Part shown: piece after piece, positions 2,140 to 2,570 of the stretch
Layout: each line of letters opens with the position of its first letter
Numbering within the stretch: position 1 is the first letter of the stretch
Source of the DNA: Peptostreptococcus sp.
GTDB lineage: Bacteria > Bacillota > Clostridia > Peptostreptococcales > Peptostreptococcaceae
Reading direction: 5' to 3'
Assembly (NCBI GenBank): GCA_020025095.1
Contig: JAHHSS010000001.1
Span: forward strand, 1 to 55,586
Length of the DNA stretch: 55,586 bases
Translations under genes and position numbers: made by a program
The notes under the pieces: model-generated
What the model was told of the DNA's origin: nothing
Database searches by the model: none
Seen by the model: the letters and a program-made list of their open reading frames with translations, nothing else

Positions 2140-2520
2140 AGTTTTATGACCATTAGTAGGTGCATTGGCTGCTACATAGGAATCTCACCTCCGCCCCTTG
2201 TTCCAGACGAGGCGGCTTAAACTATTGAAGTATCATTATCACTACTTGTATCATCGAACAGTTTGCCACCTCTGTTTTTATGTATTCTTATTTATCGCTT
2301 ACTTTCTTGTATCCTTGGCTAACCCAGTATTCATAAAACCGAATTTACTTTCAGCAGAAAGGTCATGGCGTAAGTCATAATTCTCCACAAGTAGATAAAG
2401 TCCTACCTTGGTCTATTCAGTTGTCAAAGAGCAATATTTGAAAGGGATTATTTTCTTTACATTTTCCTATTTGCCATAAGCAGGCTTATCTCTTATTGAA
2501 GAAAGTAAAGGAGGTCAAAC
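2140..2520 (-). ncRNA. Putative structured leader RNA with a boxA-like motif
   Basis: About 400 nt without a credible ORF, GC-richer than its flanks, with several hairpins. TGCTCTTTGACAACTGAATA at 2433-2414. Confidence 0.45.
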
Positions 2521-2570
2521 TCCCCTTCACTTTACATAAGGAAAATTTGACCCCTTTGGTTACCGAAGTT

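Follow-up and report, generated by a model that had tools for sequence, protein, structure and literature searches.

Several large structured RNAs act in cis, and processively, on the polymerase that transcribes them, among them conAn of pLS20, put of phage HK022 and EAR of Bacillus subtilis (Miguel-Arribas et al. 2021, PMC8191782; PMC11658703). The described system closest to the one treated here is canT of Tn916, which lies in the orf8-xis interval and needs no more than a 452-bp fragment for antitermination (Wirachman and Grossman, PLoS Genet 2024, PMC11658703). Experimentally, canT is a cis-acting, orientation-specific and processive antiterminator RNA that acts without any other Tn916 gene in a chromosomal reporter without transfer, and canT mutations do not lower the excision frequency while they cut conjugation about 100-fold. 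Fragments of 400, 373, 349 and 341 bp were active and one of 291 bp was inactive; its authors favored direct binding of the RNA to RNA polymerase and could not derive a structure from folds of single sequences. Here, we analyzed a stretch of 55,586 nucleotides (nt) from Peptostreptococcus sp., contig JAHHSS010000001.1, which is one whole contig of a 1.52-Mb draft genome in 149 contigs (hereafter the window) and carries an integrative and conjugative element (ICE). On the basis of sequence features that it has in common with canT, namely its position, the Rfam pemK motif, a boxA-like word, conserved blocks and closing helices, positions 2436-2148 of the minus strand most likely encode a canT-type, cis-acting and processive antiterminator RNA, a reading to which we give a probability of about 0.8.

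The element lies in a 462-nt gap (2570-2109, minus strand, as are all coordinates below unless stated otherwise) between a sigma-region-4-like gene of 136 amino acids (2571..2981), the positional counterpart of Tn916 orf7/sig7, and a SHOCT-like open reading frame (ORF) of 48 amino acids (2108-1962), which is followed by a gene for a large serine recombinase (1900-134). A first-pass annotation of this DNA, made from its letters alone, had described about 400 nt of non-coding sequence at this place and proposed an antitermination leader that couples transfer to excision. The gap indeed holds no credible minus-strand gene. Only two minus-strand ORFs of at least 20 amino acids overlap it, of 29 and 32 amino acids, and its homologues vary by 1- and 2-nt indels; a coding reading was rejected on these grounds.

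For comparison, we used Tn925, a Tn916-type element on pCF10 (locus L018), in which the ORF directly upstream of the element is orf8. In the window as in canT, the element has the same orientation and stands between sigma-type regulator genes and recombination genes, the latter being the serine recombinase and SHOCT-like ORF in the window and Xis and a tyrosine integrase in Tn916. Both contain a pemK motif (RF02913) above the Rfam cut-off, which scores 47.5 bits in the window (2174..2239, model positions 1-61 of 61, gathering score 34.8) and 55.0 bits in Tn925 (L018 41922-41822, minus strand), where it falls inside the canT interval. Upstream of the motif, by 157-190 nt, both have the boxA-like word; that of Tn925, TTGTTCTTTGAAAACTGAATA, lies about 160 nt 5' of pemK, is identical to the window word at 18 of 20 positions and, like the latter, precedes CGCCATGACC and GAGCGAT. 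The blocks common to the two run in the order boxA-like word, CGCCAUGACC, GAGCGAU and GAUAAUGAUACU, and the conserved words CGCCAUGAC, GAGCGAU and AUAAUGAUAC are found in both. The closing helices H1 and H2 are likewise present in Tn925, as AGUAAUCGAAUA/UGUUCGAUUGCU with 12 pairs and CGAUAAGAA/UUCUUAUCG with 9 pairs. Near the opposite end of the element, where Tn916 has a terminator, the window has a terminator-like candidate. This homology to Tn916 canT lends support to the antitermination leader of the first-pass annotation.

The published canT mutations could be placed on the Tn925 sequence. The canT(S3) mutation, which changes ATA to TGC at nt 283 after the orf8 stop, corresponds to L018 41922-41920 and thereby to pemK model positions 1-3, and the letters ATA at these positions confirm our numbering against the published coordinates (PMC11658703); the window counterpart is AUA at 2239-2237. 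The 162-nt canT deletion (nt 229-390) corresponds to L018 41976-41815 and takes out the whole pemK motif. An older Tn5 insertion in codon 41 of orf5 maps, by our own arithmetic, to 41848-41850, also inside the motif. The pemK motif appears to be the functional core of canT, and this assignment appears to be new, as does the finding that a boxA-like word heads the element across families. The terms 'boxA', 'Rfam' and 'pemK' do not occur in the main text of the canT paper (PMC11658703), 'pemK' is absent from the main text of Weinberg et al. 2017 (PMC5737381), and no literature linking pemK, boxA and canT was found in literature searches that did not extend to the supplements of the 2017 pemK paper.

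About 290 nt in length, the conserved RNA has the boxA-like word at its start, and a closed domain of about 265 nt follows, which is kept together over a long range by the helices H1 and H2 and contains several conserved words in single-stranded form. The outermost helix, H0, pairs GAC (2413-2411) with GUC (2150-2148) and, like the main stem of pemK, hardly varies in the family. Inside it, H1 pairs GGUAGG (2407-2402) with CCUACU (2160-2155), with four of six pairs changed on both sides and none broken in 16 sequences, and H2 pairs CUACUUGU (2394-2387) with ACAAGUAG (2249-2242), with six of eight pairs changed on both sides and its 3' arm just before the pemK motif. A middle domain (2296..2372) contains the words ACGCCAUGAC (about 2372-2363) and GAGCGAUAA (about 2300-2292), which are conserved in 33 non-redundant elements, a possible CGC/GCG pairing of 2370-2368 with 2298-2296 that never varies, and helix H5 (2361-2356/2307-2302), which has changed on both sides in five of six pairs and encloses a variable insert. 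It is followed at 2242..2290 by a hairpin with a variable stem (ACAG..CUGU in the window) and a UGG/UUG-type loop, the word CGAUGA and the 3' arm of H2; by eye, without a formal count, a hairpin with different stem letters stands at this position in most of the 33 elements folded singly. The pemK motif then comprises single-stranded AUAAUGAUACUUC and the stems CCGCCUC/GGGGCGG (2215-2209/2197-2191) and AGG/CCU (2190-2188/2180-2178), and the 3' end of the element (2148..2173) holds a small hairpin, Hs, of AGCA (2173-2170) with UGCA (2164-2161), in which three of four pairs have changed on both sides. The hairpin CCGCCTC..GGGGCGG pointed out in the first-pass annotation is present, as a stem of the pemK motif. 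The other hairpin named there, CAAGGTAGG..TCTACTTG, can form in the window and is not the conserved fold. Its two halves are the 5' arms of H1 and H2, each of which has a distant partner, and they are complementary in the window and Tn925 and not in L010 or L025, two other loci of the family; it could be a transient fold.

Support for this fold came from comparison with relatives, as the first-pass annotation had proposed. RNAalifold on 16 alignable relatives returned 47 pairs, of which 23 showed changes on both sides (14.7 +/- 1.9 in shuffled alignments), with 96.7% of cells paired (85.0 +/- 0.8% shuffled) and a covariation score of 0.398, compared with 0.182 in shuffles and 0.057-0.100 when partners were slid by one to three columns; none of 500 shuffles reached the observed value in any of the three measures. 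G-U pairs in H1, H2 and pemK fit a minus-strand transcript only. The two closing helices were also examined across the 33 non-redundant elements by pairing each 5' segment with its own 3' segment or with that of another element. H1 scored 249 (permuted, 82.5 +/- 16.4; 26 different 5' arms) and H2 scored 262 (193.7 +/- 6.1; 32 different 3' arms), with 0 of 5000 permutations as high in either case. An unconstrained longest-helix test was moderate, with 13 of 33 elements above the 95th percentile of mismatched partners. RNAduplex on long segments was too permissive and did not separate matched (mean -20.4) from mismatched (-18.1) partners. MAFFT with RNAalifold on the 33 diverse whole elements gave a poor fold, and none was obtained for the 75-nt piece before pemK, because variable stems were misaligned. 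We conclude that the feature is real and that selection acts on it; its length of about 290 nt and its closure by two covarying helices appear to be new.

No conserved block of the element lies further 5' than the boxA-like word of the window, TTGCTCTTTGACAACTGAATA (2414..2436), which the consensus fold leaves unpaired and outside the closed domain; the 20-mer TGCTCTTTGACAACTGAATA noticed in the first-pass annotation was located at 2433-2414 on the minus strand as described. A pattern covering the window word and same-genus rrn boxAs, TGNWCYTTRAMAAYTGAAYA, which was written after seeing the sequences, matches once in the 55.6-kb window with up to one mismatch, compared with a shuffle expectation of 0.02 (two of 100 shuffles matched). 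No 16S rRNA was found in the assembly of the window's own genome, in which an rrn leader word persists at the edge of contig C119, and rrn boxAs were therefore taken from same-genus genomes. In the complete genome G011, the 16S-23S spacer carries TGTACCTTGAAAACTGAATA in four of four operons read, and TGAACTTTGAAAATTGAACA was present in all five rrn leaders read (four from G011 and one from genome G004). The window word is identical to the G011 spacer boxA at 16 of 20 positions and, by our own count, other element variants at up to 18 of 20. Moreover, element copies vary (TGCTC, TGATC, TGTTC, TGTAC or TGAAC, then T or C) where the leader and spacer boxAs of the genus differ from each other.

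The word is also a regular companion of pemK. The strict boxA core C[CT]TT[GA]A[ACT]AA was searched for 100-300 nt 5' of the motif in the 43 sequences whose upstream part measures 300 nt or more (41 loci of other genomes, the window and Tn925) and was present on the sense strand in 34, compared with one hit on the antisense strand and one in the 400 nt downstream. Among the 27 loci that had not been used for writing the pattern, 18 have the core, and most loci that miss it have degenerate versions such as TTTTGACAACTGAATA or CCTTTACAACTGAATA. In one locus, L055, the word is only 60 nt from pemK, which resembles an internal deletion. A separate boxA-like word, TGAACTTTGAAAACAGAATA, with four mismatches to that of the window, occurs in genome G000 (contig C61, 17049-17068, plus strand, locus L078), 12 nt before the start of a gene that resembles RNase Y by eye (KH and HD motifs); this occurrence may be due to chance.

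Homologues of the gap were found in nine of 60 other related genomes searched, eight of them among the 14 same-genus genomes. TTGAC and AATAGACCAA are invariant in an alignment of 14 copies and GATAATGATACTTC in the 13 full-length ones. The 14th copy, L016 (G013:C21:59295-59374), is an orphan of 80 nt that consists of the 5' part only (boxA word, 5' arm of H1, ACNUU word and start of H2), with neither a pemK motif nor a recombinase gene behind it. In seven of 15 related places, homology begins within a few bases of the boxA word, which indicates a module boundary there. The small ORF and recombinase downstream of the homologues are of several unrelated kinds, and the element is also present on four plasmid records of Clostridium, Streptococcus and Anaerococcus.

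On a wider scale, the pemK family is common. Among 151 genomes sampled from the phylum 12 had a match, and among 151 from the class 34 did, with the class search giving 60 places, 58 of them over the cut-off; in the window it is the only Rfam family above cut-off, and it is present as a single copy in the genome. The RF02913 model (Weinberg et al. 2017) has 61 positions and is labeled 'Cis-reg', whereas the motif here makes up the 3' third of an element that measures about 290 nt and has a boxA-like word at its 5' end. We inspected the flanks of 43 pemK loci from other genomes, besides the window and Tn925. The nearest upstream ORF, called in 36 of them, encodes Sigma70_r4 or Sigma70_r4_2 in 15 loci and HTH_16 in six. 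A recombinase is encoded within the first two downstream ORFs in 30 of the 43 loci (19 serine and 11 tyrosine recombinases), only an excisionase-type HTH protein in four, a ParA-type ATPase in four and a PemK toxin in three, one of which also has an integrase; nothing was recognized in three. Copies that precede PemK/MazF-type toxin genes are L039, L042 and L048, and those before ParA-type ATPase genes are L040, L041, L046 and L050. The element family may thus serve operons beyond ICE excision modules.

By analogy with Tn916, transcripts that start 5' of the sigma-like gene would run through the RNA element, and the folded RNA would remain with the elongating polymerase and render it resistant to terminators. 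In the integrated state, such transcripts would pass the SHOCT and recombinase genes and leave the ICE at its right end. Between RepA_N and the small membrane-protein ORF with which the ICE begins on the left, a terminator-like hairpin with an 11-bp stem and a U run (46196..46225) may correspond to T1, the insulator terminator of Tn916, and would shield the replication and transfer genes from upstream host genes; these are co-directional, so that an insulator at this place would have the role shown for T1. After excision, when the ends are joined, the modified polymerase would cross the junction and pass 46225-46196 as well as the internal terminators, among which pattern matches include 32922-32895, 19082-19053 and 18316-18294. 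Such read-through in the circle would lead to expression of the replication and conjugation genes. Transcription through the stretch would fit RNA-library contigs of two other organisms that span a near-identical sequence, one of 3782 nt covering 1800-2596 and one of 3490 nt covering 2151-2258 and 2351-2898. A further RNA run, X9, covers 1800-2150 only; gaps in the coverage of the other runs were given no weight, and contig depth was not taken as expression level. In run X4, a contig that extends over the recombinase, the SHOCT ORF and the entire element at a depth of 297 stops at 2596 without a loose end, and the next contig, over the sigma-like gene, has a depth of 4.65; the break (2596-2634) could be a transcript boundary in the 3' end of the sigma-like gene, which contigs cannot show.

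Several observations weigh against a canT-type function of the window element. Antitermination, cis action, processivity and orientation dependence have been shown for Tn916 only and would be carried over to the window by analogy, and outside the conserved blocks the two elements have few letters in common. Unlike in Tn916, the sigma-like gene has no orf8-type (HTH_16) gene beside it, and the promoter system may therefore differ from Sig7-8 of that element. The pemK motif of the window is a short form that, unlike that of canT, is without the first stem and its roughly 35-nt insert; in cmscan, the first stem of the model is non-canonical and does not pair, and the score is the lowest of 15 pemK places compared. 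As the consensus fold and the pair counts come from the same alignment and its rows are related, these counts lean toward the fold. An excess of terminator-like sites over shuffles was limited to one of three 20-kb scans (16 compared with 6.0 +/- 2.4, 14 with 10.3 and 7 with 4.7), and the insulator is a pattern match only. Finally, the RNA-library contigs may hold DNA and show neither strand nor ends, and are weak evidence.

Antitermination of the rrn type involves boxA together with NusB, NusE, NusA and NusG, and in Escherichia coli binding of NusB-NusE requires the 5' half of boxA. It is possible, though we regard it as doubtful, that the word in the element binds NusB-NusE and renders the polymerase terminator-resistant in the same manner, either as the whole device or, rather, as one of its components. 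The word is indeed close to the boxAs of the genus and varies at the same positions, stands single-stranded at the 5' end of the element, precedes a long-range helix, an arrangement also seen in rrn leaders, keeps a fixed distance to pemK in most loci and marks the start of homology modules in seven of 15 related places. However, canT loss of function in Tn916 maps to the pemK part, about 160 nt 3' of the word. In addition, the active and processive 452-bp canT fragment tested in Bacillus subtilis spans nt 126-577 after the orf8 stop, and by coordinate mapping it begins in Tn925 at the second T of CTTTG, with TTGAAAACTGAATA, and is without the TGTTCT of the boxA word, which itself spans nt 118-137 (PMC11658703). 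A fragment that starts inside the word indicates that the full boxA is not needed in that reporter, as far as Tn916 is concerned, and the preference of the canT authors for direct binding of the RNA to polymerase points the same way. The step from boxA to NusB made in the first-pass annotation could therefore not be upheld as written, and a role for Nus factors is most plausible as a helper for range or against Rho. We put forward, tentatively and as a speculation that is more likely wrong than right, that the whole pemK/canT class mimics an rrn leader, in which boxA recruits NusB-NusE and other Nus factors and the pemK domain closed by H1 and H2 clamps the complex on the polymerase. In that case, the rRNA antitermination machinery of the cell would be put to use by ICEs of Firmicutes and also by some plasmid, toxin-antitoxin and partition operons, and boxA would matter for range or Rho resistance and not at the short reporter distances tested.

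Other explanations fit the evidence less well. In line with the 'Cis-reg' label of Rfam, the element might be a leader through which attenuation, translation or stability determines how strongly the SHOCT and recombinase genes are expressed, and its frequent place directly 5' of recombination genes (30 of 43 loci), as well as of PemK-toxin and ParA-type genes (three and four), and the end of the H1/H0 3' arms about 30 nt before the ribosome-binding site would agree with this. We consider it improbable, since a control of recombination genes is at odds with the undiminished excision and roughly 100-fold lower conjugation of Tn916 canT mutants (PMC11658703), and no pairing with the ribosome-binding site is found in the consensus fold. 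An element that acts as DNA, namely a promoter with TTGACA as its -35 box, a single-strand origin or a set of binding sites for the recombinase or a helper, is very unlikely, even though TTGACA lies inside the boxA word, the recombinase genes are adjacent and single-strand origins do occur on conjugative elements. By eye, no conserved -10 box follows TTGACA at 16-18 nt in the window, Tn925 or other families, and a promoter scan listed no sigma-70 promoter there; the G-U pairs and compensating changes indicate a folded minus-sense single strand; and canT is active in a single orientation, and this in a chromosomal reporter where no transfer takes place, while the map of Tn916 shows its single-strand origin as a feature of its own (Fig. 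1 legend, PMC11658703). We give as little credence to a two-part system as in pLS20, in which an antiterminator RNA is joined by a processivity protein. The conAn2 RNA of pLS20 has a center of about 238 bp flanked by 20-bp inverted repeats (PMC8191782), and this overall shape is that of the H1-closed domain described here, without shared sequence seen. However, conAn needs ConAn1 for range and stands at the start of the conjugation operon, not beside a recombinase, whereas canT needs no other gene of its element. The ConAn1 domain (PF17362) had no match in the genome of the window or in the 42 window ORFs scanned, but none of the 14 control genomes gave one either. The comparison with pLS20 conAn drawn in the first-pass annotation was not supported in that form. 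No sequence likeness to conAn, put or EAR was found, and the latter two occur in other contexts. A canT-type antiterminator RNA remains our preferred assignment.

Upstream of the boxA word, a long hairpin, GGGGUCAAA..UUUGACCUCC, with a U-rich run (2500..2560) separates the element from the sigma-like gene. Positions 2526-2507 are listed as terminator-like, and by eye its outer stem compensates in relatives, from GGUCAAA/UUUGACC to GGCAGAU/AUCUGUC. A GC-rich hairpin with the 3' arm GUGA(A/G)GGGG, usually with a U run, is found 10-70 nt 5' of boxA in the window and in L026, L028, L036, L038, L046 and L053, that is, in several unrelated element families, and lies outside the tested Tn916 fragment. 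In appearance, the hairpin is a terminator or attenuator directly preceding the antiterminator, to which it probably does not belong.

The ICE to which the element belongs is roughly 46 kb in size, and nearly all genes of the window are on the minus strand. Host genes stand at high coordinates, the last of them being a rumA-type methyltransferase (48056-46695), after which the ICE follows; from the breaks of homology in same-genus genomes, its left boundary is placed near 46733, where the methyltransferase gene has its 3' end. The conjugation and replication genes encode RepA_N, a DnaC-like ATPase, DUF3801, a coupling protein, VirB6/PrgI/VirB4-type proteins and a CHAP hydrolase, and further ICE genes encode a CD1107-like protein, a topoisomerase, a helicase-methylase of 2992 amino acids, IS200 and AbiJ; the MobC and relaxase genes are on the plus strand. 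The large serine recombinase matches Resolvase, Recombinase and Zn_ribbon_recom (109.6, 94.3 and 47.6 bits), and the SHOCT-like ORF matches SHOCT_2 just below the cut-off of 24 (23.6 bits, E 5.9e-05). For the sigma-like ORF, the label given in the first-pass annotation holds in part. It resembles Tn925 Orf7 (30% identity over 67 amino acids, pairwise E 2e-06), while no Pfam family was matched at E up to 0.001 and the NCBIfam sigma70-ECF score of 30.3 bits is below the cut-off of 42.9. Just 5' of this gene, at about 3024-3066, the window has in common with relatives a strong hairpin, GAGGAUUCCU..AGGAGUCCUC, with a run of seven Ts behind it, and the corresponding Tn925 region 5' of orf7 matches the Rfam family SQ2397 (RF03532) with 229.8 bits.

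Elsewhere in the ICE, a cargo region (3548-12777) encodes a YcaO cyclodehydratase, a ThiF-like protein, a nitroreductase-family protein, two CAAX-protease-like proteins, an amidohydrolase, an ABC transporter and an AraC/GyrI-like regulator, and looks like a thiazole/oxazole-modified peptide cluster. The 2992-amino acid protein is encoded by a single ORF (19795-28773) with Eco57I-type methylase, ResIII, SNF2 and helicase C domains, and is followed by the IS200-type transposase gene (18933-18439).

For the window alone, the element would be an expected part of an ICE, a member of a known family whose function has been shown in one relative. For the family, pemK, an orphan Rfam family since 2017, canT, described in 2024, and the boxA-like word now meet, having stood apart in print as far as we searched. 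The pemK motif would gain a tested function and canT a comparative structure, and the mechanism becomes testable, with the boxA word, H1, H2, the AUAAUGAUAC word and Nus factors as targets. Control of transfer by termination and antitermination would then extend from relatives of Tn916 to serine-recombinase ICEs of the Tn1549/CTn-like kind, which occur frequently among Clostridia of the gut.

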